IMG/VR virus record: IMGVR_UViG_2693429557_000011
Length of the DNA stretch: 29,524 bases
Origin: a virus
Lineage: Duplodnaviria > Heunggongvirae > Uroviricota > Caudoviricetes
Reading direction: 5' to 3' (one strand)
Under the pieces are notes generated by a model. The model did no database searches. It saw only the letters and a list, made by a program, of their open reading frames with translations, and was not told the origin of the DNA. How positions within the stretch are numbered: the stretch's first letter is position 1; each line of letters begins with the position of its first letter. Positions 3,108 through 16,406 of the stretch are shown here, piece by piece. The translations under genes were made by a program, and so were the position numbers.

Positions 3108-3662
3108 TCAGCCAACAAATTTAGCAACAAATACAGCAACCGCCGCTGTGAAAATGGTTGTGCACACTGGCACAATAATGCCACTCCAACGCCACTTCGT
3201 ATTATCATCAACCTTGTCAAACCGCCGATTCATCTCATCCATAATCTTGTCAAAGCGTTTATCCATCGCTTCGGTAAGCTCACCCTTCAGGCTGTTAATG
3301 TCTGATTTGAGCTGCTCTTTCAGGTTAGCTGTATCAGATTTAAGCTCACCTTTCAGATTCGCAATATCGCATTCAAGATCACCTTTCAGATGTGCTATGT
3401 CTGCTTTGAGTTCACCTTTCACCTCACCAACATCGGCTTTAGTTGAGAGGTTTGTAGTGCGTTCAGCAAGCGTCGCAAGGTCGTTTCTTGTTAGCGATAA
3501 ATCACCTTCGAGCCGCTCAATTCGCCTTTCAAGTTTATCTGACATTCCGCCTCCACTACTGCCGCCATCGCCACCATGATAAAGCACATCACGCTCAGAA
3601 TGCGACACACTACCTGCTGAATTACCGAAAAGATTTCTTGCTACATTACCCATTATCACCAT
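3108..3662 (-). CDS. Tail-anchored coiled-coil membrane protein with tandem 11-residue repeats (DUF1640-like look); function unknown
   Basis: 184-aa ORF. Repeats are KGELKADIAHL / KGDLECDIANL / KGELKSDTANL / KEQLKSDINSL / KGELTEAMDKR. The single C-terminal TM is IIVPVCTTIFTAAVAVFVAKFV. The start at 3662 overlaps the upstream gene by 17 nt. An alternative start at 3545 (MSDKLERR) follows a GGAGG Shine-Dalgarno. Confidence 0.7.
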   Translation of the reverse strand: MVIMGNVARNLFGNSAGSVSHSERDVLYHGGDGGSSGGGMSDKLERRIERLEGDLSLTRNDLATLAERTTNLSTKADVGEVKGELKADIAHLKGDLECDIANLKGELKSDTANLKEQLKSDINSLKGELTEAMDKRFDKIMDEMNRRFDKVDDNTKWRWSGIIVPVCTTIFTAAVAVFVAKFVG

Positions 3663-4146
3663 CCTGCGCTTTGTCTTTCTCCAACCACTTCAGCACCGCA
3701 GACGTACGATAAAGGCTCAGGTAACCACAATTCAGGCAATGCAGCGTGTAATAAGTTTTGCGCATATCAGGTATGCTCTTAACATCACCCAAAAAAGCAT
3801 AAGATACATAATGCTTTATGTTCTCTTTAATTAACTCACTCTGTTCCTCCAGGGGTAGATTGTTAAAATTTTCTGGTTTCTTATTTTTATCCCAGCAAAG
3901 ATCCATACTTTCTGGAACAGATAATCGCGACGATCCACATGAAGGGCAGACACTGGAGACCCCCTTCTCAGACAAGAAACGGAAGAAGATTTCTGGCGTA
4001 ATCTCCATCAGCCGCTCTTTATGTTTTTTGACACGACTCATCGACTTCTTATTGATTTCATCAGCTTCTTCTTTGCATTTATCTTCTATATATTTCGATA
4101 GTAAATAGTCATATAACTCTTTTTTTGTAGGTTTTTTTATTTCCAT
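3646..4146 (-). CDS. Hypothetical protein with split zinc-ribbon (CPSC ... CLNC); function unknown
   Basis: 166-aa ORF. Cys pairs CPSCG and CLNCG lie about 70 residues apart, and the N-terminus is Lys/Glu-rich. It starts 2 nt after the int stop. It is very AT-rich (hand-counted 60-nt samples give 20-37% G+C). Confidence 0.7.
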   Translation of the reverse strand: MEIKKPTKKELYDYLLSKYIEDKCKEEADEINKKSMSRVKKHKERLMEITPEIFFRFLSEKGVSSVCPSCGSSRLSVPESMDLCWDKNKKPENFNNLPLEEQSELIKENIKHYVSYAFLGDVKSIPDMRKTYYTLHCLNCGYLSLYRTSAVLKWLEKDKAQDGDNG

Positions 4147-4148
4147 AG

Positions 4149-5126
4149 TTACATTCCTCCCAAGGGATTAAACCTCACCGCATCCTGCAAGTAATCCGGC
4201 GCAAGATGGGCATAAATCATCGTTGTCTGAATCTTTGCGTGCCCCAGAATTTTCTGGAGCGTCAGAATATTGCCGCCGTTCATCATGAAATGACTGGCGA
4301 AGGTGTGGCGCAGCGCATGAACAGCCTGGCCGTCAGGAACATCAGGTGCGACCGTTTTGATGACATCGCGAACCAATGAATAATCCAGCGTCGGAAACAC
4401 CAGTTTCCCGCCCCGTTTTTTGATCTTTTCAAACAGGCTTTCAGAAATAGGAACGGTACGGTTTTTGCTGTTCTTCGTTTTTGAAAAAGTGATTCGACAA
4501 TGAAGAACACGGCGCTGCTCCAGTGCCGCTACCTCGCCCCATCGCGCCCCGGTCGACAGAAGGATTTCGACGGCCAGCCGTTCATCGGGATTTTCAGCCA
4601 GTGCATCCAGCAACTGAACACATTCAGACTTACTCAGATATCCCATTTCACGCTCGTTAACCTTCATTCCTTTAAGGCCTTGAACGGGGTTATCGTTAAG
4701 AAAATGGCCGGATGAGATGAGTGCGGTAAACATCGCGCTTAACGCCCCAATCTCTCGATTTATGGTGCTGGGCTGTATCCCCTGCTCTATCCTGGACACA
4801 CGTAGCTCGGTGAGCATCGTTGTATTAAGTTTATGCACGCACGGGTCATCCATTGCCTCACTCAAGCGCAGCAATTTAAGGCGCGTGTTATGCCCTGACT
4901 TCATTAGCTGGCCGTGGTATTTCCACCACAAGTCAATAAGCACTGACAGCGGACGGCGATCAATGGAGTTTCCTTTCCACTCATTGTTATGCTGTTGCGC
5001 CAGCACCCACCGCTCATATAAAACTGCATCCGATTTCGTTTTAAATTTTTTGCGAATGCGTTTGCCTTTACGCCCCTCAGGACGCATGTCAAGAAGATAC
5101 CCTCCCGGAATTGATTTTATGCTCAT
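4149..5126 (-). CDS. int: Tyrosine integrase, P2 Int type
   Basis: The ORF track gives 375 aa. I place the start at the internal ATG at 5126 (MSIKSIPGGYLLDMRPEGRKGKRIRKKF), which aligns with the P2 Int N-terminus. The C-terminal catalytic region is LSTGARWGE ... HALRHTFASHF ... LGHAKIQTTMIYAHL (R, H-x-x-R, H, Y). Confidence 0.9.
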   Translation of the reverse strand: MSIKSIPGGYLLDMRPEGRKGKRIRKKFKTKSDAVLYERWVLAQQHNNEWKGNSIDRRPLSVLIDLWWKYHGQLMKSGHNTRLKLLRLSEAMDDPCVHKLNTTMLTELRVSRIEQGIQPSTINREIGALSAMFTALISSGHFLNDNPVQGLKGMKVNEREMGYLSKSECVQLLDALAENPDERLAVEILLSTGARWGEVAALEQRRVLHCRITFSKTKNSKNRTVPISESLFEKIKKRGGKLVFPTLDYSLVRDVIKTVAPDVPDGQAVHALRHTFASHFMMNGGNILTLQKILGHAKIQTTMIYAHLAPDYLQDAVRFNPLGGM

Positions 5127-5175: not shown

Positions 5176-5487
5176 TTAGCCGGGCTGTGTGCCAGTCTTG
5201 CGGGATTTTTGAGAAGACGATGTGTTTTCTGGCCCATCAGGGGAGAGAGAAGGACTGATCTGCCCAGCAGCCTCATTTGTTTCGTTACTCATCAACCACG
5301 TAGTGTATTTTTTAAATTCCGGGTGCATTGTGATTTTCAGTAAAACCTCCGTTCCCACACCTCGAATACCAGTCTCGTATTGCTTAACCGTACCAACCGC
5401 AATACCTATTGAATCCGCGAACTTTGCCTGACTAAGCCCCTCAGATTCTCGAATTGCTTTTAGCTTCTTTGATATCTCTATTGACAT
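5176..5487 (-). CDS. Immunity repressor, P2 C type (HTH)
   Basis: 103 aa from the internal ATG at 5487 (MSIEISKKLKAIRESEGLSQAKFADSIG...). It has an HTH_XRE-like N-terminus, and the segment HPEFKKYTTWLMSN...GQISPSL parallels P2 C (TPQFTKYTLWFMTN...GQIAPAL). It is divergent from the cox-like gene. Confidence 0.8.
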   Translation of the reverse strand: MSIEISKKLKAIRESEGLSQAKFADSIGIAVGTVKQYETGIRGVGTEVLLKITMHPEFKKYTTWLMSNETNEAAGQISPSLSPDGPENTSSSQKSRKTGTQPG

Positions 5488-6224: not shown

Positions 6225-6512
6225 ATGACCAAAGACAATGCACAAGGTGTATTTATCCGTTTTATTGATTTTCGCGGTGAACTGTTATTACGTGCATCCG
6301 CTATTGACGGAGTGACTCCGGCGGGTAAAAACGGAGCCGACGAAGCCACTTACGTTTATCTGAACGGCACGCGACTGCTTGTGGAACTTCCGTACCAGAC
6401 CGTACGAGAAATCATCAGCGAAGATGAAAAGGCACGCCAGGTTAATGGCGATGAACCCTATATCGAAATTATTTGTATGGATTCAGAAGCTGAAATACAG
6501 AAAGCAGATTAA
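6225..6512 (+). CDS. Hypothetical early-operon protein
   Basis: 95 aa from the ATG at 6225 (MTKDNAQGVF...), in frame with the track ORF 6111-6512. I chose this start to avoid overlap with the preceding gene. No motif recognised. Confidence 0.5.
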   Translation: MTKDNAQGVFIRFIDFRGELLLRASAIDGVTPAGKNGADEATYVYLNGTRLLVELPYQTVREIISEDEKARQVNGDEPYIEIICMDSEAEIQKAD

Positions 6513-7921: not shown

Positions 7922-10744
7922 ATGACGGCAGAGTACATCAGGGACTGGCAACAACCGCGCCACGCAGTGGGGCGTGAAGGAACGGGGATCCCCGCTCCTG
8001 AATCCGCGCTTTCCTCCTGGCTGGATGCCCACCGGGCAGAGAACGAGCGCCGCCAGGAAATGGCTGATGCGGCGTTCTCCGCCACGCCACTGGGCAACCT
8101 GATTAATAAAAGCCTGGACGCACAGGAAAAACAGGACAAAACCATCACACTGGCAGGAGACGCCAGAAAACAGGCACGCGGCGCGGTGGATGAAGCCATG
8201 GCCTCGCTGCGCCTGCTGCCGTCCTATCTGCGCGATCCGCTTATTCGCCACCTCTCCTTCCTGCGCAAAAAACAGGAAGCCGATCGCCGGAAAGGCAAAA
8301 AGAGCTGGCAGGCGGAACGCTATGCACGCGGAACCCTGCGCAAAATATTCGAACGTCTGGATCGCACTGACGGACACTGGCTGACACCGGGTTATCGCTC
8401 CCTTGCCGGACGTGAACGCCTGGACGATTTGCTTTACCTGCCGCAACTCAACAAACACCAGATACAGACGCTGGCCACCATGACGGCGGCGATGTTCAGC
8501 AGCACCTTCGAAAAACTCTGCGATGGTTTTGGCGCGACTGATGGCGAGCTGACCATGGATGTAACGCTGAAGGCGTATCAGATGCTGGCCCGCATGGCGT
8601 TACACTTACACGCCATGCCTCCGCATTATGACGCACTGACAACAGACAAAGACCGGAGGCACGAACCGGACACAGAACTGCTGCCGGGCGCAATCCTTCG
8701 CCTGACCTGTGCGGAATGGTGGAAACGCAAACTGTGGCTGTTACGTTGCGAGTGGAGAGAAGAACAACTTCGCGCCGCCTGTCTGGTTTCCAGAAAAACA
8801 TCGCCCTATCTGAGCCAGGACGCGTTAAGCGAGTTTCGCGCACAGCGCGAGAAAACACGCGATTTCCTGAAAAGTTTCATGCTGGAAAATGAAGACGGGT
8901 TCACGATTGATCTCGAGACGGTGTATTACGCGGGAGTAAGTAACCCGGTTCACCGTAAGGCAGAAATGATGGCCACCATGAAGGGGCTGGAACTTCTGGC
9001 CGAAGCCCGTGGCGACAAAGCGGTGTTTCTGACTGTCACCTGCCCGTCAAAATACCACGCCACAACGGAGAACGGTCATCCGAATCCCAAATGGAACGGG
9101 GCCACAATGCGCGACTCCAGCGATTACCTGGTTAACACGTTTTTTGCGACGGTCCGCAAAAAACTGAACCGCGACGGCCTGCGCTGGTATGGCATCCGCA
9201 CGGCGGAGCCTCACCATGACGGCACCGTGCACTGGCATATGATGGTCTTTGCTCATCCGGAAGAAATCGACACCATTGTGTCCCACACCCGCGATATTGC
9301 CATTCAGGAAGATCGTCACGAGCTGGGCGATGACATAACTCCGCGCTTTAAGGCGGAGTATGTAGACGGCTCAAAAGGCACGCCAACCAGCTACATCGCC
9401 ACCTACATCGGGAAAAACCTGGACAGCCGCGCCGTGGATGGCATCGACCCGAAAACGGGCAAGCCACGCGTTGACCACGAAACCGGAAAATCAATGGCCG
9501 AGAGCGTGGAACGCGCCATCGGCTGGGCGCGCCTTCACCGGGTCCGCCAGTTCCAGTTCTTTGGCATCCCCTCCCGCCAGGTATGGCGTGAACTGCGCCG
9601 CCTTGCCAGCCAGATGGCACGCAACCCGGAAGGCCCGCAACGGCTGAAGGATGACGCAATGGATGCGGTTCTTGCCGCCGCTGATGCCGGATGTTTTGCC
9701 ACCTACATAGAGAAACAGGGCGGCGTACTTGTTCCACGCAAAGACTACCTGATTCGCACCGCCTACGACCTCGCCGATGAGCTGAACGATTACGGCGAAC
9801 AGAGCGTACAGATTTACGGGATCTGGTCACCACTCATCGGGGAATCCTCCCGTGTGTGCACGCATCCGGATAACTGGAAGCTGGTAAGACGCAAACCGGA
9901 AGCGGAAGACAGCGCCCGCGAAAATGGTTTTGACCTTCAGGGCGGCCCTGCCGCCCCTTGGACTCGTGGCAATAACTGTCCCCGTGTACAGGAAACGGAC
10001 AACAACGGGACAGAACAGCCGGAAGAACGGCCAGCACCGTGGCCGCAGCTCCCTGACGGCGTTGATGTGGATGAATGGATGCGCTCACTGAAACGGCACG
10101 AACGCCGGGCGCTGATGCGTTCGCTTCGTGACAAACAGGCAAAAAACAGCAGTGATGAAATGCAGAGCTGGACACAGAGCCGCAAACAGCAGCGGCCTTT
10201 GCCTGATAACCACGAATTACTCGCTAAAGAATGGCGGGAGTCTGCTGAATCTCTCGGCCTGCATATCGGTGAACAACAGATGCAGCACCTGTTACGGGGC
10301 GGCAGTCTGTACGTTGACGGCAGCATCATTGCACCGCAGGGATTTGAAATTGTACGCAAACCGGATACCCGCCCGGACAGCCGAATCACGCAGCTCTGGC
10401 AGCGCCTGAGCCGTAATCATGGCGTAAGCAGCACGGAGATCCGCCATAACCCGGTCGCCAGCTATCTGACACAGCTGGGGGCATCAGACCCTGAAGCCGC
10501 CGCACGCCTGGCATCCACACTTCAGCAGGACCAGAACACCATGAAAACACCCGTTACCGTGCTTTCTGACATGCTGCGCGCCATCCGCGACGCAGAGCAC
10601 GCACAGAGAATCAGTGAAACCACTGAACGCGCCCGCCGCAAAGCAGACCTGCTGCGGGGTGGCCTGACCAGTGGAAACAAAAAACAGACAGAAACGGGAC
10701 TCACGAATCCCGTAAATGAGCAAAAAACGCGCAGCGATATATGA
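7922..10744 (+). CDS. Replication initiation endonuclease, P2 gpA family (HUH rolling-circle initiator)
   Basis: 940-aa ORF. The HUH-type metal motif GTVHWHMMVF has its HWH at nt 9230-9238. The paired catalytic tyrosines YIATYIGKN (Y491, Y495; nt 9392-9406) match the Y-x-x-x-Y of P2 A. The last 250 aa or so are charged and Gln-rich. Confidence 0.9.
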   Translation: MTAEYIRDWQQPRHAVGREGTGIPAPESALSSWLDAHRAENERRQEMADAAFSATPLGNLINKSLDAQEKQDKTITLAGDARKQARGAVDEAMASLRLLPSYLRDPLIRHLSFLRKKQEADRRKGKKSWQAERYARGTLRKIFERLDRTDGHWLTPGYRSLAGRERLDDLLYLPQLNKHQIQTLATMTAAMFSSTFEKLCDGFGATDGELTMDVTLKAYQMLARMALHLHAMPPHYDALTTDKDRRHEPDTELLPGAILRLTCAEWWKRKLWLLRCEWREEQLRAACLVSRKTSPYLSQDALSEFRAQREKTRDFLKSFMLENEDGFTIDLETVYYAGVSNPVHRKAEMMATMKGLELLAEARGDKAVFLTVTCPSKYHATTENGHPNPKWNGATMRDSSDYLVNTFFATVRKKLNRDGLRWYGIRTAEPHHDGTVHWHMMVFAHPEEIDTIVSHTRDIAIQEDRHELGDDITPRFKAEYVDGSKGTPTSYIATYIGKNLDSRAVDGIDPKTGKPRVDHETGKSMAESVERAIGWARLHRVRQFQFFGIPSRQVWRELRRLASQMARNPEGPQRLKDDAMDAVLAAADAGCFATYIEKQGGVLVPRKDYLIRTAYDLADELNDYGEQSVQIYGIWSPLIGESSRVCTHPDNWKLVRRKPEAEDSARENGFDLQGGPAAPWTRGNNCPRVQETDNNGTEQPEERPAPWPQLPDGVDVDEWMRSLKRHERRALMRSLRDKQAKNSSDEMQSWTQSRKQQRPLPDNHELLAKEWRESAESLGLHIGEQQMQHLLRGGSLYVDGSIIAPQGFEIVRKPDTRPDSRITQLWQRLSRNHGVSSTEIRHNPVASYLTQLGASDPEAAARLASTLQQDQNTMKTPVTVLSDMLRAIRDAEHAQRISETTERARRKADLLRGGLTSGNKKQTETGLTNPVNEQKTRSDI

Positions 10745-10792
10745 AGCGCGCACAAAACAGGCAAAAACGGGATTTCAGAATCCCGTAAACGA
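10681..10792. repeat. Two 39-bp direct repeats, each containing an 8-bp-stem palindrome; candidate parC-like centromere or other protein-binding site
   Basis: Unit 1 at 10681-10719 is AAAACAGACAGAAACGGGACTCACGAATCCCGTAAATGA. Unit 2 at 10754-10792 is AAAACAGGCAAAAACGGGATTTCAGAATCCCGTAAACGA. They share about 33/39 identity with a 73-bp period. The palindrome ACGGGATT-TCAG-AATCCCGT lies at 10767-10786. Unit 1 lies inside the 3' end of A and unit 2 just upstream of parM. Confidence 0.5.
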
Positions 10793-10820
10793 TTAATTAA
10801 TCAACATAAGGAAAAGCGAC

Positions 10821-11780
10821 ATGAAAATTTGTATCGACGACGGCTCCACCAACATCAAGCTGGCATGGACTGAGAACGGCGAACGCCGCAACGCCATCAG
10901 CCCGAACAGCTTCAAGTCGGAATGGTCTGCGCCGTTCGGTGGCATGCAGCCCGCGAACTACATGCTTGATGGCGTGCGCTATGGTTTTGATCCGGTCAGC
11001 GATCGCTTTGTCCAGACAACCGACACGCAATACCAGTACAGCGATGTAAATGTCATTGCCATTCATCACGCGCTGGTCAAATCAGGCATCACGCCACAGG
11101 AGGTGGATGTGGTTGTCACCCTGCCACTGAGCGAGTATTTCGACACAAACGCACAGCCGGACATGGCCAACATCAACCGCAAAAAAGCGAACGTTATGCG
11201 CCCGGTGGAGTACCAGAACGGCGAAGCATTCACTATCCGTAACGTGCGGGTTATGCCTGAATCCATTCCGGCTGGCTTTAAGGCACTGGCTGACATGAGT
11301 CCGTTTGAATCCCTGCTGATTGTGGATTTGGGCGGAACCACGCTGGATGTGGCAAAGGTTCAGGGGCAACTGGCAGGTATCAGCCAGGTGTTTTGCGATC
11401 CACACGTAGGCGTTTCTCTGATGGCCGATGCCGTACTGTCGGTGATGGCCACTAACGGTATGCGCACCAGTCACCACATCGCCAATACCATTATCGAACA
11501 TCGCCATGATGAAGCCTGGCTGCGCCAGCACATCCACAATGACGCGCATTACGCCAGCCTGATGGCGGTTATTCGTGAAAAGGAAGAAACACTGAAACAA
11601 CGCGTGATCCGCGCGCTGGCGGGTTTTTCGGGTTACGGGCGGGTGATGGTTGTCGGTGGAGGGGCGGAGATTGTGGCACCCGCTATCCGCGAAGCCTGCG
11701 GAGTTAATGCGACTTTCATCGCGGACGGGGTGCCACAGTTTGCTCTGGTTAATGGGCTGTACGCAATGGACAAGGAGTAA
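10821..11780 (+). CDS. parM: Actin-like plasmid segregation ATPase ParM/StbA
   Basis: 319-aa ORF. It is colinear with plasmid R1 ParM as I remember it: IDDGSTNIKL phosphate-1, ISPNSFK.EW, YSDVNV.A.HHAL, TLPL.EY, ERKKAN, V.VMPESIPAG, LLI.DLGGTTLD phosphate-2, VM.GGGAE adenosine motif, LVNG.Y. Confidence 0.85.
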   Translation: MKICIDDGSTNIKLAWTENGERRNAISPNSFKSEWSAPFGGMQPANYMLDGVRYGFDPVSDRFVQTTDTQYQYSDVNVIAIHHALVKSGITPQEVDVVVTLPLSEYFDTNAQPDMANINRKKANVMRPVEYQNGEAFTIRNVRVMPESIPAGFKALADMSPFESLLIVDLGGTTLDVAKVQGQLAGISQVFCDPHVGVSLMADAVLSVMATNGMRTSHHIANTIIEHRHDEAWLRQHIHNDAHYASLMAVIREKEETLKQRVIRALAGFSGYGRVMVVGGGAEIVAPAIREACGVNATFIADGVPQFALVNGLYAMDKE

Positions 11781-11784
11781 ACCA

Positions 11785-12096
11785 ATGACGACACCAACCA
11801 GACGGATAAGTTTCTATCTGAAGCCTGCGGCCGTCAAGAACGAAAGCGAAGCATGCGCCTGGCTGGGCAGCCTTACACCAGAAGCCCGCAAAAGCGGCCA
11901 ACGCGTGGCTTTTCTGGCCGGGCTGGCACTTCTGAAAATGAATCCAGCAGAGGCTTACCGACTGGCTGCATGGGCTGACGATGAGGCGTTATCGGTGACA
12001 CAAACCAGGACAGAACGCCCCGTGCCACAGCCAGTACCAACCGCACAGATAACCAGTCAGATAGCAGGGAATATCCGGGCATTATTTCCTGAATGA
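11785..12096 (+). CDS. parR: ParR/StbB-like centromere-binding adaptor (putative)
   Basis: 103 aa from the ATG at 11785, 4 nt after the parM stop. RRISFYLKPA...LGSLTPEARKSGQRVAFLAGLAL parallels R1 ParR RTIAFKLNPD...LDSIPQGERSRLNRAALTAGLAL (RHH N-terminus). Confidence 0.7.
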   Translation: MTTPTRRISFYLKPAAVKNESEACAWLGSLTPEARKSGQRVAFLAGLALLKMNPAEAYRLAAWADDEALSVTQTRTERPVPQPVPTAQITSQIAGNIRALFPE

Positions 12097-12156
12097 CGAA
12101 TTTGACGGCTTTTAATTTTATCGGGGTGCACTGTCGCCCCGCACGAGGAAAACACG

Positions 12157-12681
12157 ATGAAAAAATACGAATACATGCTAATGAAAGAAGCACTGCGGGC
12201 TGGTCTGGCTCCCTGTCCTGTATCCGTAGAAGCTGTTGTTGGGAACACGATTTTCCGAACGCTGCGAAATCGCGTATCCGTGAAGATGGTTCACCAACCA
12301 CCCAAATCTACCAGCATGATCTATCTGCCGCTGCCCGAGGCTATCAAACTTATGCGTTCGCTGAAATTTGCGATTTGGATGCAGACACAAATCAACAAAG
12401 CGGTGCAAAACACCTTCGTTAAGAGACTAATACCGGAGCTTGCTGCCAGATGTGCAAAATGTACCAGACCCGCACTTCAATTTGATCTGTCATTGATTCA
12501 ACAAGCTACGGAGGCAGAACTGTACCGCCTGTCACCTATCCGTGATGCTCACACGGAAGCATCAGAAATGTTCCGGCTCATGTTTCAATTTAATTTTGCC
12601 GTTCGACGCACACGCGTTCAGGTCAATCGCATGATGCAGGAGCAGGAAGAGTTAACACAGTACAAAGGGGGCAGCCAGTGA
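12157..12681 (+). CDS. Hypothetical protein, hotspot cargo gene 1
   Basis: 174-aa ORF with GAGGA Shine-Dalgarno-like sequence at 12144-12148, preceded by a stem-loop at 12122-12141. No catalytic motif recognised. Hand-counted G+C in a 60-nt sample is about 42%. Confidence 0.65.
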   Translation: MKKYEYMLMKEALRAGLAPCPVSVEAVVGNTIFRTLRNRVSVKMVHQPPKSTSMIYLPLPEAIKLMRSLKFAIWMQTQINKAVQNTFVKRLIPELAARCAKCTRPALQFDLSLIQQATEAELYRLSPIRDAHTEASEMFRLMFQFNFAVRRTRVQVNRMMQEQEELTQYKGGSQ

Positions 12682-12917
12682 GTAATTCAGCACGACTACA
12701 GCTTGGTTTTTCACCGCTATCAAAAACCATCGTATTGGCAAAAATGCGTGACTTAGGAGACGGAACAAAACGCCGCGTAGGAAATGATCGCGGTCGCGAT
12801 GTAACCAACGAGGCCGCTCAACTCGTTTGGCATCTAGTCATGGCAGAAGGCGGTGAAATTAATTGGGAGCTGGATGATGGTTCTCGTATGATTTTGAGGG
12901 CCGAGAAGAGTAAATAG
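12678..12917 (+). CDS. Hypothetical protein, hotspot cargo gene 2
   Basis: 79-aa ORF. Its GTG start overlaps the upstream stop as GTGA (12678-12681), suggesting translational coupling. No motif recognised. Confidence 0.55.
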   Translation: MSNSARLQLGFSPLSKTIVLAKMRDLGDGTKRRVGNDRGRDVTNEAAQLVWHLVMAEGGEINWELDDGSRMILRAEKSK

Positions 12918-12931
12918 CTCAAGGGGGATTA

Positions 12932-13117
12932 ATGCTAAATGATGATGAAGAAGAGCTGCTTATGCAGGAATGGTCGCTCGGTGATTATGATAATGGTGAA
13001 AATGGGTGCCCGCATTGTGGCCGTTATCGTTTATGTATCTGCCAGAATGGAAAACACAGATGTGAAAAGTGCAATTGGTCTCCGGAACTTAATGACTACG
13101 TGCCGATCGAGTGGTAG
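12932..13117 (+). CDS. Small Cys-rich zinc-ribbon protein, hotspot cargo gene 3
   Basis: 61-aa ORF with AGGGGG Shine-Dalgarno-like sequence upstream. It has an acidic N-terminus followed by CPHC-x5-CxC-x6-CEKC. Confidence 0.55.
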   Translation: MLNDDEEELLMQEWSLGDYDNGENGCPHCGRYRLCICQNGKHRCEKCNWSPELNDYVPIEW

Positions 13118-13140
13118 AGGTAAGTCACACTAGGTGTTTT

Positions 13141-13557
13141 TTAGTTGATTTTATAAATGCACAATAGTGCACAAATTTGCACAATTTTTTTGAACGACTT
13201 TTTGCCCTTCCGGCCCGCGTGGCGGCTGGATCCGTCAAGGATCCGTGCATGCACAAAAAAACGCGTTTTTTCTGCGCGCAGGTGACGGGGGAACAGCCCG
13301 CGTTTCAGGGGGTAAATAGCATTCCCTGAACGATGTCGCAGAGATACAACAGAATGGCTGTATTTCTCACGCTGAGCGTGAAAAAGACGTGAGGGCTTTT
13401 GATTTGATGGGGTGAAAGGTAAGGCCGTCAAAATCGCACTGAGACGGCGAGAATATGCAGTCAACGAGGTGGGATTGCGTAAGAGTCTGACTGTCGATGA
13501 TGGCAATCAGCAGGAAAGCGTCGTGAAATTATCTGACTGATACAGGAGCTGGAGAGT
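13141..13557. other. Non-coding cos/packaging region of the P2-like phage (exact cos not fixed)
   Basis: This is the gap between the last cargo gene and the 3' end of portal gene Q, which is where P2 and 186 carry cos. The core GCGTGGCGG at 13217-13225 matches the start of the 186 cohesive end (GGCGTGGCGGGG) as I recall it. GGATCCGT is directly repeated at 13228-13235 and 13239-13246. TGCACAA occurs three times with a 10-bp period at 13158-13185. Confidence 0.45.
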
Positions 13558-13582
13558 CGGGGCATAAATTTTTTATGCCCCG
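13558..13582. terminator. Perfect 11-bp-stem hairpin just downstream of portal gene Q
   Basis: CGGGGCATAAA (13558-13568) / TTT / TTTATGCCCCG (13572-13582). There is no clean U-tract outside the stem, so it is not a canonical intrinsic terminator. Its position matches the hairpin after Q in P2. Confidence 0.45.
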
Positions 13583-13608
13583 GCGAAGCAGCAGACAAGC
13601 GAAGCGCG

Positions 13609-14655
13609 TCAGGATGTGGGCTGGGTGTCTAACAGTGCGTAAGGGTTAAAGCGGATCACCTCTTCGCCAAGCCAGTCATTGATGTGCTTCATGGCCTCCA
13701 TGACGGGCATCAGCTCGTTAATTGCGTAAACCCGCGCGGCCTTCTCCACATCACCAAACGCACTTTTTTCGCCCGGCATCGCCCCCATCAGTTGCGGCGG
13801 AACGCGGTGCGCAGCCAGCACATCATCACGGGATGCCGCCTTAACATTCATGAACTCATCCTTTGCGGTGATCTGCTGGAACGGCAAAATTTGCACCCCC
13901 TCTTTGCCCCCGTTGGGCGCATGAATGAGCACGTTTTTAAACGCACCACCACCACGTGCCCCCTGTAGCGTTTCTTTCAGGGAGTCCATGCTTTCGCGGT
14001 TTACCTGCGCTGCACCGATGTAGATGATGCACCCGGCGTGGGATCCGTTGTCGTAGTACAGTTTTCTGAACATGTCCGCCGAATGAGAAAGGCTGGCCGA
14101 GAGTAATGCGCCAAGATATTCCGGCATGCCGTAGATTTCCTGGTTAATATCCGGATTCATCAGGTGGCACACTTTGCCAGGACGAAACTGAAACGCATCC
14201 TTGCCATCCTGCACATACCACCATGATTCAAGATCGCTTCCGCGTCGCATGTATTTCGCCAGGGCGTGCCGTAATTTAAGCGGTTCGCCGAGCATATTGC
14301 TCCGAAGCTCAAGGAATGCGTTACCGAACACAAACCAGTCCAGCGCCAGCGCCGAGAAATCCTGCCGGGAAAGCAGCGGGTGCGGAATATAGCAGCCGAG
14401 CAATACATTGCGCTTAAAGTAAAGCGCAGACTGATGCCAGGACGTTTGCCGGGCAGCTCTTGCCAGACCGTACCAGTCCACCGGGGTTTCATACCACCGC
14501 CCGTTATCAGCACAGTACATATTGTCCAGCAGGTCATGCCCGGTCAGGCGGTAAGGACCATCAAATGTGAATGCACTGAGCGACGATTCTTTCCTGAGCG
14601 CATCAGCGAGATCAATGCGTGAACTCATGCGCACTTTTTTATTTTTTCTGCTCAT
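13609..14655 (-). CDS. Portal protein, P2 gpQ type
   Basis: 348-aa ORF (P2 Q is about 344 aa). It is adjacent to and co-oriented with the large terminase, and divergent from the scaffold/capsid operon, as in P2. Confidence 0.85.
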   Translation of the reverse strand: MSRKNKKVRMSSRIDLADALRKESSLSAFTFDGPYRLTGHDLLDNMYCADNGRWYETPVDWYGLARAARQTSWHQSALYFKRNVLLGCYIPHPLLSRQDFSALALDWFVFGNAFLELRSNMLGEPLKLRHALAKYMRRGSDLESWWYVQDGKDAFQFRPGKVCHLMNPDINQEIYGMPEYLGALLSASLSHSADMFRKLYYDNGSHAGCIIYIGAAQVNRESMDSLKETLQGARGGGAFKNVLIHAPNGGKEGVQILPFQQITAKDEFMNVKAASRDDVLAAHRVPPQLMGAMPGEKSAFGDVEKAARVYAINELMPVMEAMKHINDWLGEEVIRFNPYALLDTQPTS

Positions 14656-16406
14656 CAGAACTCCATAACCGTGAAACGCTCGTTTTCTCCTTCGCCGCCA
14701 ATCGGTTCGTTAATGACAGCAAGCATGGTTGCCCACGCAAGGTCGCCGTGGCTGATCCCCCTCGCGCGGTCCGTTTCGTAAGTGATAAAACCGCCCGGTG
14801 TTTTCACCTTACGCACGGCGTTAAAGGCCGCAACCAGCTCGCGTTCGGCGCGATCGTATTCCCACCGCCCGGCACGCATTATTTGCAGCATTTTCAGTAC
14901 CAGCGACCGTTTTGATGACAGCGTGAAGGTGTAAGGGATGGCGGCGGGAAAAAACCGTTTCACTATCTGATAGACGGCATCCCCGTGCCCGCCCGTCGCA
15001 TCAATGCCGATGTGTTCCACGTTGTAGCGATACGTGAACTCTTCAATAACTCTGGCCTGCTCTTCAAATTCCAGCCCCTGAACGCGTCGCGTCTCCACCG
15101 TTCTGAAACGACCACCAGGAACAGCCGGAGGAACCACCACGGACACAGCGCCGCTGTCGCCGTTACCACTGCTGCCGTTTGCGTCATACCCAATCCATAC
15201 CGGACGATTCCCCATCGGGCGGGGGGCAAAGGGTTTCCAGTCTTTCCAGTCGTCGTATCCGTCAACACCGCAGCCAATCAGGATATTCAGGTTAAATGCC
15301 GATTCCCCTTCGCGGACAAACTCACACATATAGAGATTGCGGAACTCGTCTTCGGTGTTTTCATCACGAATTTCATCAATATCGGTGTGTTTCCAGCCGT
15401 GATTAACCACATCTTCCAGCGTGACAATTTGCCGCCACGTCCGGTCAGGGCAGATAAGCCCGTTATGCAGCGTTTTCCAGTCCACAGAAAAACGCTGGCG
15501 TTTATGCGCGGCCTTTTTCTCGTTCCAGCGGTCGCCGTTCCAGTAGGCGTATGCCTCGTGCGTTTCGGTGGATGGCGTGGAGAAGCAGGTGCGCCGCAGT
15601 CCGCTGAGGGTTGCCATAGCGCCAGCCACCTTGCGCAGTTCAGCAAAGCGACTGACCCAGAAAAATTCATCAAAATAAAAATTGCCCGTGTAAGATTGCG
15701 CCGTCGCAGCAGAAGTGCCGAGAAAATGCATCTCTGCGCCGTTGGAGAGGATGATTTTATCGCCCCCTTTCAGCTCCACATCGACTTCAGCCGCGGCCTT
15801 CTGAATAATGCTTTTAAACTGGAACGCCTGACGACGCGACGCAGACAAAAAAATCTGGTTACGCTGGTAAGGTTGTGCCACATCGTCACGCAGCGCCATC
15901 AGCAGTGCTTCCTGTGCAAAATACCAGGTCGCCCCAATCTGTCGGGATTTCAGGATCATCCTGTTACGTATCCCGGCTTCCCTGCAAAGCGTCAGGGAGT
16001 CAAACCAGCCCCGCTGATGCCACTCCAGCCTGCTGATGATTTTTTCCCGCAGTGCGGCAATCTGTTCCGGCGTGAAATGATTTTTGAGTTTTTTCGCCCG
16101 GCCTTTCTTTCCTGTGGCCGTCGCATCCGGCTGGCCATCATGCAGTTTTTTAAGCTGCCGGGTCAGCAGGTCTATTTCCTTAAAGTCACCACCTGTTTTA
16201 TTCTGTTTTTCAGTAAGCTGGATGAGGCGCGCATCGATGGACTGCGTGACACGCTGCACGGGTGGCGTTTCATCCCACTGGTCGCGTTTTTTCCACGCAT
16301 AAATCGTGTTCGGGTTTATTCCCATCAGACGTGATATTTCTGCGGGCGGATAACCCTGCCAGTAAAGTTGCCGCGCACGCTGGCGCACAAAAGCGTCCTG
16401 AATCAT
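14655..16406 (-). CDS. Terminase large subunit (ATPase/nuclease), P2 gpP type
   Basis: 583-aa ORF. The N-terminal HTH-like segment is YWQGYPPAEISRLMGINPNTIYAWKKR. The Walker A-like region is ILKSRQIGAT and the Walker B-like region is NFYFDEFFW. The 1-nt overlap with Q follows the P2 order. Confidence 0.9.
   Translation of the reverse strand: MIQDAFVRQRARQLYWQGYPPAEISRLMGINPNTIYAWKKRDQWDETPPVQRVTQSIDARLIQLTEKQNKTGGDFKEIDLLTRQLKKLHDGQPDATATGKKGRAKKLKNHFTPEQIAALREKIISRLEWHQRGWFDSLTLCREAGIRNRMILKSRQIGATWYFAQEALLMALRDDVAQPYQRNQIFLSASRRQAFQFKSIIQKAAAEVDVELKGGDKIILSNGAEMHFLGTSAATAQSYTGNFYFDEFFWVSRFAELRKVAGAMATLSGLRRTCFSTPSTETHEAYAYWNGDRWNEKKAAHKRQRFSVDWKTLHNGLICPDRTWRQIVTLEDVVNHGWKHTDIDEIRDENTEDEFRNLYMCEFVREGESAFNLNILIGCGVDGYDDWKDWKPFAPRPMGNRPVWIGYDANGSSGNGDSGAVSVVVPPAVPGGRFRTVETRRVQGLEFEEQARVIEEFTYRYNVEHIGIDATGGHGDAVYQIVKRFFPAAIPYTFTLSSKRSLVLKMLQIMRAGRWEYDRAERELVAAFNAVRKVKTPGGFITYETDRARGISHGDLAWATMLAVINEPIGGEGENERFTVMEF

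Follow-up and report, generated by a model that had tools for sequence, protein, structure and literature searches.

The interval between the partition genes and the cos-proximal DNA of a P2-family prophage was analyzed in a 29,524-nucleotide stretch of viral DNA (IMG/VR record IMGVR_UViG_2693429557_000011), referred to here as the window. The interval (12097-13140, 1,044 bp) holds three co-oriented open reading frames (ORFs) of 174, 79 and 61 amino acids, called genes 1, 2 and 3, exactly as an earlier sequence-only reading had described them, and all three are under purifying selection. The same reading had proposed that they form a novel defense or exclusion module, or an abortive-infection toxin module, and neither proposal is supported here. 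The three genes are instead independently mobile and not parts of one functional cassette: the interval is a recombinant of two alleles, and its genes rarely occur together elsewhere. We think it reasonably likely that the cargo is a string of three independent early accessory genes which modulate the host or counter its defenses. As a whole, the interval is an ordinary if uncharacterized case of something already known, the mosaic accessory cargo of phage hotspots.

The recombinant origin is visible against an E. coli collection of 5,426 complete genomes. None of these genomes covers the 1,044-bp interval to 80% or beyond, and in the comparison of the whole hotspot 80% coverage was reached by only 30 records, none of which carries the whole cassette. 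In one set of genomes (L001), gene 1 is 97% identical and precedes an Ead/Ea22-like gene. A second set (L002) has a ClpX-type zinc-finger gene and a 75-aa gene, then genes 2 and 3 at 99% identity, and continues into the cos-proximal DNA. In a three-allele alignment these two parental matches overlap solely at 12657-12685, a stretch of 29 nt. The cassette is a recombinant of the two alleles, parR-gene 1-Ead/Ea22 and parR-ClpX zinc finger-75-aa gene-gene 2-gene 3, which crossed over within the shared 29 nt. The exact three-gene order was 99.9-100% identical in the seven NCBI assemblies read, and the exact proteins of genes 1-3 are each found on 643-908 contigs, with names from Shigella sonnei and E. 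coli O28ac. The arrangement looks like a single recombinant allele which succeeded and spread by clonal descent.

Outside this allele the three genes are seldom neighbors. Co-occurrence was counted within 2.5 kb in IMG/VR loci, using the best 80 loci for DUF7446, the family of gene 2, and 49 loci for gene 3. Genes 1 and 3 lie near DUF7446 in four of the best 80 loci, all four of which are the window's own arrangement, and the other 76 lack both genes. Genes 1 and 2 lie near gene 3 in 4 of 49 loci, and the remaining 45 lack both; 14 of these other loci adjoin a P2-type portal gene without gene 1 or gene 2, while 31 of the 49 adjoin none of the reference genes tested.

The 29-nt stretch contains a 19-nt linker, AAAGGGGGCAGCCAGTGAG (12664-12682; this and the other cargo features given below lie on the plus strand). 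Its general form is AAAGGRGGCARNCAGTGAG, and it was searched for with a 19-nt pattern which has two purine choices and one free position. The linker matches once in the window, where zero matches are expected by chance. It provides the stop codon of the upstream gene as well as the Shine-Dalgarno sequence and GTG start (V-S..., GTG-AG) of the downstream gene, and the final codons of gene 1 (KGGSQ and stop) lie within it. It ends four unrelated upstream genes (gene 1, the 75-aa gene and one gene each of the DUF2737 and Eae families), and the four proteins accordingly close with KGG(S/N/K)Q. In IMG/VR the linker was present on at least 120 contigs (L029-L148), where it likewise fixes the ends of unrelated upstream proteins as KGG(S/N)Q, and the 125 instances analyzed among the matches listed join 5 upstream to 12 downstream families. 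Downstream of it are Ead/Ea22-like genes in 96 instances, DUF7446 in 9, and other families which include a PAPS-reductase-like gene. The commonest upstream family shares a C-terminal motif with the annotated Eae protein of L012, a plasmid discussed below. The junction between genes 2 and 3 is built differently, with another short leader in place of the linker.

Since the linker encodes the KGGxQ tail of one protein along with the Shine-Dalgarno sequence and GTG start from which the next one is translated, it would couple the translation of gene 2 to that of gene 1 and offer enough homology for cassettes to be exchanged. It may be a general cassette-exchange site for strings of small genes. The idea that short conserved boundary sequences are foci of recombination in lambdoid mosaics is an old one, reportedly found in Susskind and Botstein, Juhala et al. 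2000 and Clark et al. 2001. A literature search for the junction sequence found no description of this linker. The GTG start of gene 2 inside a GTGA overlap with the gene 1 stop is present as claimed, but the suggestion that the overlap marks a toxin-antitoxin-like pair falls away: the same linker joins many unrelated gene families, so the overlap is better described as a generic coupling and exchange junction of a gene pool.

The element which carries the cargo is, by its similarity to known phages, a P88-like (Xuanwuvirus) prophage of the P2 family which also carries parMR. Around the cargo, the DNA shares 94-97% identity with Escherichia phage P88 and with other Xuanwuvirus (Peduoviridae). 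Upstream of the cargo lie gpA (7922-10744, Phage_GPA, E 7e-131) and the partition genes ParM (10821-11780) and ParR (11785-12096), both identified by domain search. Downstream, on the minus strand, lie the portal gene Q (13609-14655) and the large terminase gene (14655-16406). To the left of gpA there are a repressor-type regulator, an integrase and host btuCED-type genes. Because of this gene order, with the regulator and integrase to the left and gpA-parM-parR directly upstream, the cargo is the distal end of the rightward early operon which runs from the repressor-proximal genes through gpA, parM and parR.

The gpA-gpQ interval is the cos-proximal hotspot of P2-like phages defined by Rousset et al. 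2022 (PMC9122126), and the cargo lies within it, between gpA and portal Q and close to cos. Many validated defense systems reside in this slot, where P2 itself has tin and old, and the slot also houses genes with functions other than defense (PMC9122126). About a quarter of P2-like phages have a partition system there, and Rousset et al. suggested that parMR may permit plasmid maintenance (PMC9122126). A homologue of gene 1, WP_000759755, is present in the locus table of that study (PMC9122126).

The content of the slot is variable. In sampled P88-like sibling prophages from the E. coli collection, the parMR and portal flanks are about 94-98% identical and the intervening DNA differs. At least seven cargo types were seen: Ead/Ea22-like genes; a ClpX-type zinc-finger gene with small ORFs; a single 135-aa gene; a PAPS-reductase pseudogene; a DUF4760 gene with a hypothetical gene on the opposite strand; a helix-turn-helix (HTH) and PIN pair resembling RosmerTA; and no annotated gene at all. 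The RosmerTA-like allele is in E. coli isolate CE20 (NZ_CM188248.1; L025, 1279-2932), in the parR-portal slot of a P88-like sibling, where a 381-aa HTH protein matches the RosmerTA antitoxin RmrA (PADLOC, E 3e-35) and is accompanied by a PIN-domain protein. Many siblings which carry parMR lack all of genes 1-3. A ParR-based search of one genome per species returned only 3 loci and was of limited use.

Homology to P88 and L002 ends at 12097, as does homology to L001, and homology to P88 and L001 restarts at 13156-13158. Comparison with relatives thus sets the variable segment at 12098 to about 13155, which closely matches the proposed limits of 12097-13140. Because homology stops and resumes at these points and siblings carry other cargo between the same flanks, the sequence-only reading was right to place the genes in the equivalent of the tin/old hotspot between A and Q, and right that they are one allele of a variable island and not core genes. 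The lower G+C it had estimated by hand was borne out by measurement, at 0.473 in 12097-13140 against 0.577 in gpA, 0.553 in parM, 0.554 in parR and 0.541 in Q, and fits import from another gene pool. Its statement that none of the three genes has an enzymatic motif agrees with the domain libraries (Pfam, NCBIfam and PADLOC).

Gene 1 (12157-12681) begins with ATG, preceded by the Shine-Dalgarno sequence GAGGAAA, and encodes a 174-aa protein, basic (isoelectric point, pI, 10.0) and soluble, in which helix predominates and the C-terminal helix is long. The family is an orphan one, confined to prophages of the E. coli/Shigella type. Only 8 clusters were found among 5.8 billion proteins, and an exhaustive HMMER search of 1.84 billion representatives gave 4 matches, 3 of them credible. 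The fourth match, P0046 (E 2e-4), was judged spurious and has no coherent domains. The ratio of nonsynonymous to synonymous substitution rates (dN/dS) is 0.18. Searches by sequence and profile gave no solved structure and no Pfam, NCBIfam or PADLOC match. The only usable AlphaFold2 model has a mean predicted local distance difference test (pLDDT) of 71.6, and its structural matches are no more than generic helical hairpins. Relatives with 51-72% identity occur in longer strings, such as parR-66aa-SSB-ClpX zinc finger-gene 1-Ead/Ea22-75aa-167aa-portal, where SSB is a single-stranded DNA-binding protein. Ead/Ea22, rather than gene 2, is the usual gene downstream of gene 1.

Gene 2 (12678-12917, GTG start, 79 aa) overlaps the gene 1 stop by 4 nt and has a Shine-Dalgarno sequence. 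Residues 7-77 of its 79 match DUF7446 (PF24233) with 61 bits against a Pfam cutoff of 24.1, and the protein also belongs to phrog_1578 (PHROG E 2e-32). It is basic (pI 9.4) and strongly conserved: the family comprises 372 clusters with about 80% identity across prophages of Enterobacteriaceae, 37 columns are invariant in an alignment of 22 sequences, and dN/dS is 0.08-0.16, computed on a codon alignment since the family has a one-codon indel. The AlphaFold2 model is poor (pLDDT 58.6), no solved structure was found by sequence or profile, and a literature search for DUF7446 found nothing specific.

The contexts of gene 2 point to a shared pool of accessory genes. The lambdoid prophage L011 has it in its pL operon, within N-ral-kil-recT-gp157-...-DUF2737-DUF7446-Ead/Ea22-...-xis-int. 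In L012, a 93.6-kb plasmid with P1-type genes, it lies within a string of overlapping small genes. It also occurs in isolated phages of several genera, and in the three which were inspected it sits in strings of small genes. Its presence in strictly virulent phages was not established, since SopranoGao carries an integrase and Bas82 a ParB-like gene. Among the best 80 DUF7446 loci, the neighbors are DUF2737 in 28, Eae in 27 and Ead/Ea22 in 15, and the gene upstream is usually DUF2737 or Eae. Conservation of DUF7446 across such different phage types suggests that it may have a conserved host target or partner.

Gene 3 (12932-13117) encodes a 61-aa acidic protein (pI 4.4) with a variable acidic N-terminus and a conserved W-x-LGDYDNGE motif. 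The earlier description of a six-cysteine zinc ribbon behind an acidic N-terminus was correct as to pattern, and the pattern is conserved. The cysteine core consists of CPHC at 26-29, CIC at 35-37 and CEKC at 44-47, so that two CxxC knuckles (C26/C29 and C44/C47), as expected of a zinc ribbon, are present. Across 31 homologues there is no change at C29, C35, C44 or C47 and almost none at C26, C37 and H42. The protein belongs to phrog_24897 (PHROG E 3e-46), which has 36 clusters, and dN/dS is 0.09. Matches to known zinc ribbons are weak: Pfam Zn_ribbon_IS1595 reaches 17.1 bits where its cutoff is 25.4, the RNA-polymerase zinc ribbon RpoM gives E 0.02 and the ribosomal L37Ae gives E 0.13.

Gene 3 travels by a route of its own. 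Its short, conserved leader (12902-12931) takes in the end of the gene 2 coding sequence, stop included, as well as the Shine-Dalgarno sequence AAGGGGG, and the same leader is non-coding DNA 5' of gene 3 in Salmonella P2-like prophages. In these Salmonella prophages, which lack parMR, gene 3 occurs alone between a 136-aa gene and cos. By blastn, 12902-13311 of the window is 88% identical to one such P2-like prophage from Salmonella (L013), beginning at the gene 3 leader, and gene 3 therefore moves with its own 30-nt leader and the cos-proximal DNA. Across the loci with gene 3 homologues (L231-L280), a P2-type portal gene lies within 2.5 kb in 18 of 49. In L276 the homologue is at 2166-2321 and a terminase large subunit gene starts 3 nt downstream; in L017 it is at 4001-4189 with a P22-type portal gene downstream. 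Further contexts are replication regions, nin-like regions or other strings of small genes.

Transcription of the cargo was considered from the signals at its edges. No sigma-70-like promoter was found ahead of gene 1 in a crude consensus scan; the sole consensus-like site lies inside gene 2 (12863-12892), and there are fewer sites than in shuffled sequences. The left spacer (12098-12156) runs from the parR stop to gene 1 and forms the left end of the variable cargo. It holds the 7-bp-stem hairpin that had been noted between parR and the cassette (12122-12141, CGGGGTG/CGCCCCG). The hairpin exists, and one of its 7 pairs is G-U. It does not stand out statistically: the 76-nt stretch which contains it folds no better than shuffles (z -0.14). 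An intrinsic terminator was ruled out on the grounds of this score and the lack of a T-run. The compared alleles all have a GC-rich hairpin without a T-run at most about 45 nt after the parR stop (L002, about 5410-5432; L003, about 2902-2924; L018 and L019, about 6318-6340), and its sequence differs between them (CGGGGTG.. vs TCAGGGCG..). This position-conserved hairpin could be an RNA stabilizer, a processing site or a transcription attenuator.

At the other end, the cargo tail (13118-13155) contains a T6 run at 13137-13142 and closes the variable segment. The conserved cos-proximal DNA starts at 13156-13190 with three copies of TGCACAA, the palindrome GTGCAcaaattTGCAC and a T7 run. Within it, a terminator-like site at 13167-13182 followed by a T-run is conserved in P88, L001, L002 and L013. 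The 13156-13190 site is likely a terminator at the end of the cargo transcript, and could alternatively be a protein-binding site near cos. The exact cos site was not placed, as the P2 cos core (GGCGAGGCGGGGAAAGCAC) has no match within 3 mismatches, and Rfam found no RNA family in 10600-13700. Given the lack of a recognizable promoter of their own, their place at the end of the early operon and the conserved terminator-like site downstream, genes 1-3 are probably read through from the early/parMR transcript.

Two other repeats were observed in the flanks. A 42-nt direct repeat (10678-10719 and 10751-10792, 81% identity) covers the 3' end of gpA and reaches into the 76-nt gap that precedes parM, and each copy contains a 20-nt palindrome, ACGGGACTCACGAATCCCGT and ACGGGATTTCAGAATCCCGT. 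These repeats are a candidate parC or ParR operator together with the parMR promoter region. Just downstream of portal gene Q, a perfect 11-bp inverted repeat at 13558-13582 (CGGGGCATAAA ttt TTTATGCCCCG) is probably the terminator of the leftward Q-P transcript.

The known strings which the cargo most resembles are the exo-xis genes of lambda and Stx phages (ea22, ea8.5, orf60a, orf61, orf63 and orf73) and the Ead and Eae genes of P22, which are likewise small, co-oriented and often overlapping early genes. Such strings are described in the literature as lacking enzymatic motifs, highly mosaic, dispensable, and able to affect host physiology and the lysis-lysogeny decision; exo-xis genes are described there as the earliest expressed and as influencing that decision. 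Two observations tie the cargo to this pool. The gene 2 homologue of L011 lies in the pL region beside DUF2737 and Ead/Ea22, and the gene 1/gene 2 junction is the linker which precedes Ead/Ea22 genes and is also used by Eae and DUF2737 genes. The source would thus be a pool of early accessory genes of the lambdoid exo-xis or P22 'ea' type, exchanged among lambdoid, P1-like and P2-like enterobacterial phages. Unlike exo-xis, the string here is in a P2-family phage and follows gpA/parMR near cos instead of lying between the recombination genes and xis.

Each of the three genes is predicted to yield a small, soluble, non-enzymatic protein: a basic helical protein, the conserved basic DUF7446 protein and an acidic zinc ribbon. 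Each probably acts alone by binding a host or phage partner, and by analogy with the pool the roles might be in host physiology, in the lysis-lysogeny decision or in neutralizing host immunity. A precedent for the last of these is Oad2 (HK446 gp27), a small accessory protein related to P22 EaE from the same modular lambdoid locus, which directly binds and inhibits the P2 OLD nuclease, and whose locus has been termed an anti-defense hotspot (10.64898/2026.07.10.737580). Sequence searches gave no relationship between genes 1-3 and Oad2 or Eae, and an anti-defense role for genes 1-3 would be an extrapolation from this precedent.

Several points weigh against reading the cargo as a string of early accessory genes. 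The partner-binding step is pure inference. In Pfam and PDB searches, genes 1-3 have no homology to the characterized members Ea22, Ea8.5, Orf60a/61/63/73 or Eae/Oad2. Gene 1 was found only in P2-like hotspot strings, and not in the lambdoid early-left context inspected. The promoter scan was a crude consensus match, and a ParR-regulated parMR promoter, for which the repeats at 10678-10792 are candidate operators, could give expression in the lysogen, which would fit a defense role. The structural models, of genes 1 and 2, are too weak to exclude a cryptic fold. The RosmerTA-like pair of the CE20 sibling also shows that the same slot can hold defense-type cargo.

It is unlikely, on balance, that the cargo or one of its genes is a prophage-expressed defense or superinfection-exclusion system which, like P2 tin and old, would put small non-enzymatic proteins into the lysogen. 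Such a role would fit the slot, the variability of the cargo, the lower G+C, the CE20 allele and the possible lysogen expression just mentioned. However, unlike tin, old and the systems validated in that slot (PMC9122126), genes 1-3 match none of the 5,027 models of the PADLOC-DB v2 defense library, even at E<=1, and the PADLOC check suggested for defense homologues thus came back empty although the same library recognizes the sibling's RmrA. Nor are the genes a conserved unit, and no nuclease, NTPase, membrane or sensor domain and no promoter of their own was found in them. Pfam, PHROGs and NCBIfam return only families of unknown function, with the zinc ribbon of gene 3 below threshold. Elsewhere gene 2 is part of a lambdoid early-left operon, a phage-plasmid string and the strings of three isolated phages, and in lambdoid phages the gene pool is expressed early in the lytic cycle and is not a defense locus active in the prophage. 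The hotspot also houses other functions (PMC9122126), and defense or exclusion has ceased to be the favored reading. It is quite unlikely that at least one of genes 1-3 is a new lysogen-expressed exclusion or defense factor driven by a ParR-regulated parMR promoter. Gene 1 would be the best candidate because it is confined to the P2-like hotspot, and the mechanism of such a factor would then have no relation to any system catalogued so far.

A toxin-antitoxin or abortive-infection pair made of genes 1 and 2, translationally coupled through the GTGA, is extremely improbable. Like type II systems and RosmerTA, the two are small adjacent genes with a 4-nt overlap, and relatives carry toxin-antitoxin-type cargo in the same slot. 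But the overlap belongs to the generic linker, and Pfam, NCBIfam, PADLOC and PDB searches found no toxin fold or antitoxin domain in genes 1-3. The conserved pairing expected of a type II system is missing as well: gene 1 is near gene 2 in 4 of the 80 loci, all of them this one recombinant allele, and the usual partners differ, with gene 1 preceding Ead/Ea22 and gene 2 following DUF2737 or Eae. The idea is largely refuted because genes 1 and 2 are not a conserved pair. Ties to the flanking genes were also weighed. It is very unlikely that the cargo serves an episomal or replicative lifestyle linked to parMR, as replication, partition or DNA-metabolism accessory factors. The cargo does lie directly downstream of parMR in the same orientation, an SSB and ClpX-type zinc-finger proteins are encoded in related strings, phage-plasmids are among the carriers of DUF7446, and parMR may allow plasmid maintenance (PMC9122126). 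Against this, genes 1-3 are missing from many siblings with parMR, gene 3 occurs in P2-like prophages without parMR, gene 2 occurs in the integrating lambdoid prophage L011, and no DNA-binding or replication domain was detected in genes 1-3 with Pfam. Finally, gene 3 might be a packaging or late-gene zinc-ribbon factor tied to the cos region rather than a free accessory gene, which we regard as highly improbable. It is contiguous with cos-proximal DNA in two P2-like lineages (88% over 12902-13311), and portal or terminase genes lie near it in the 18 P2-type loci, L276 and L017; yet gene 3 is missing from the homologous DNA of P88, which is an isolated and viable phage, and from most siblings that have both flanks, and the other contexts of gene 3 are replication or nin-like regions. 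Genome ends beside packaging genes are generic slots for accessory genes.

A few observations were made elsewhere in the prophage and its relatives. On the minus strand at 3108-4146, between the host btuC side and the integrase, two phage genes encode a 184-aa coiled-coil protein (phrog_9415) and a 166-aa protein (phrog_4293); this end of the prophage may offer cargo a second position. Weak PADLOC matches of these genes to LmuB and ZorA look like coiled-coil noise. In a Salmonella enterica genome (CP191473.1; L019, 7468-8031), an extra 187-aa ORF lies between the cos-proximal DNA and the portal gene, a sign of a possible second point of insertion, on the Q side of cos. P88-like prophage DNA with 90-91% ParR identity was also present in L018 (NZ_JBQPOM010000071.1) and L020 (JBLKRX010000173.1), from assemblies labelled Vagococcus sp. 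and Fredinandcohnia humi; these labels on enterobacterial prophage DNA are probably contamination or mislabelling.

None of the cargo findings would surprise a phage genomicist. They do bear on how the P2-family hotspot is read: the cos-proximal "defense hotspot" also admits early accessory genes from the lambdoid pool, and position in it therefore does not suffice to call a gene a defense gene. A concrete route of shuffling is documented in the 19-nt junction, which gives stop, Shine-Dalgarno sequence and start across unrelated families. DUF7446 is flagged as a cheap experimental target, as its identity of about 80% suggests a conserved binding partner, and the pool from which such genes would come includes direct inhibitors of host immunity, such as Oad2 against P2 OLD (10.64898/2026.07.10.737580).

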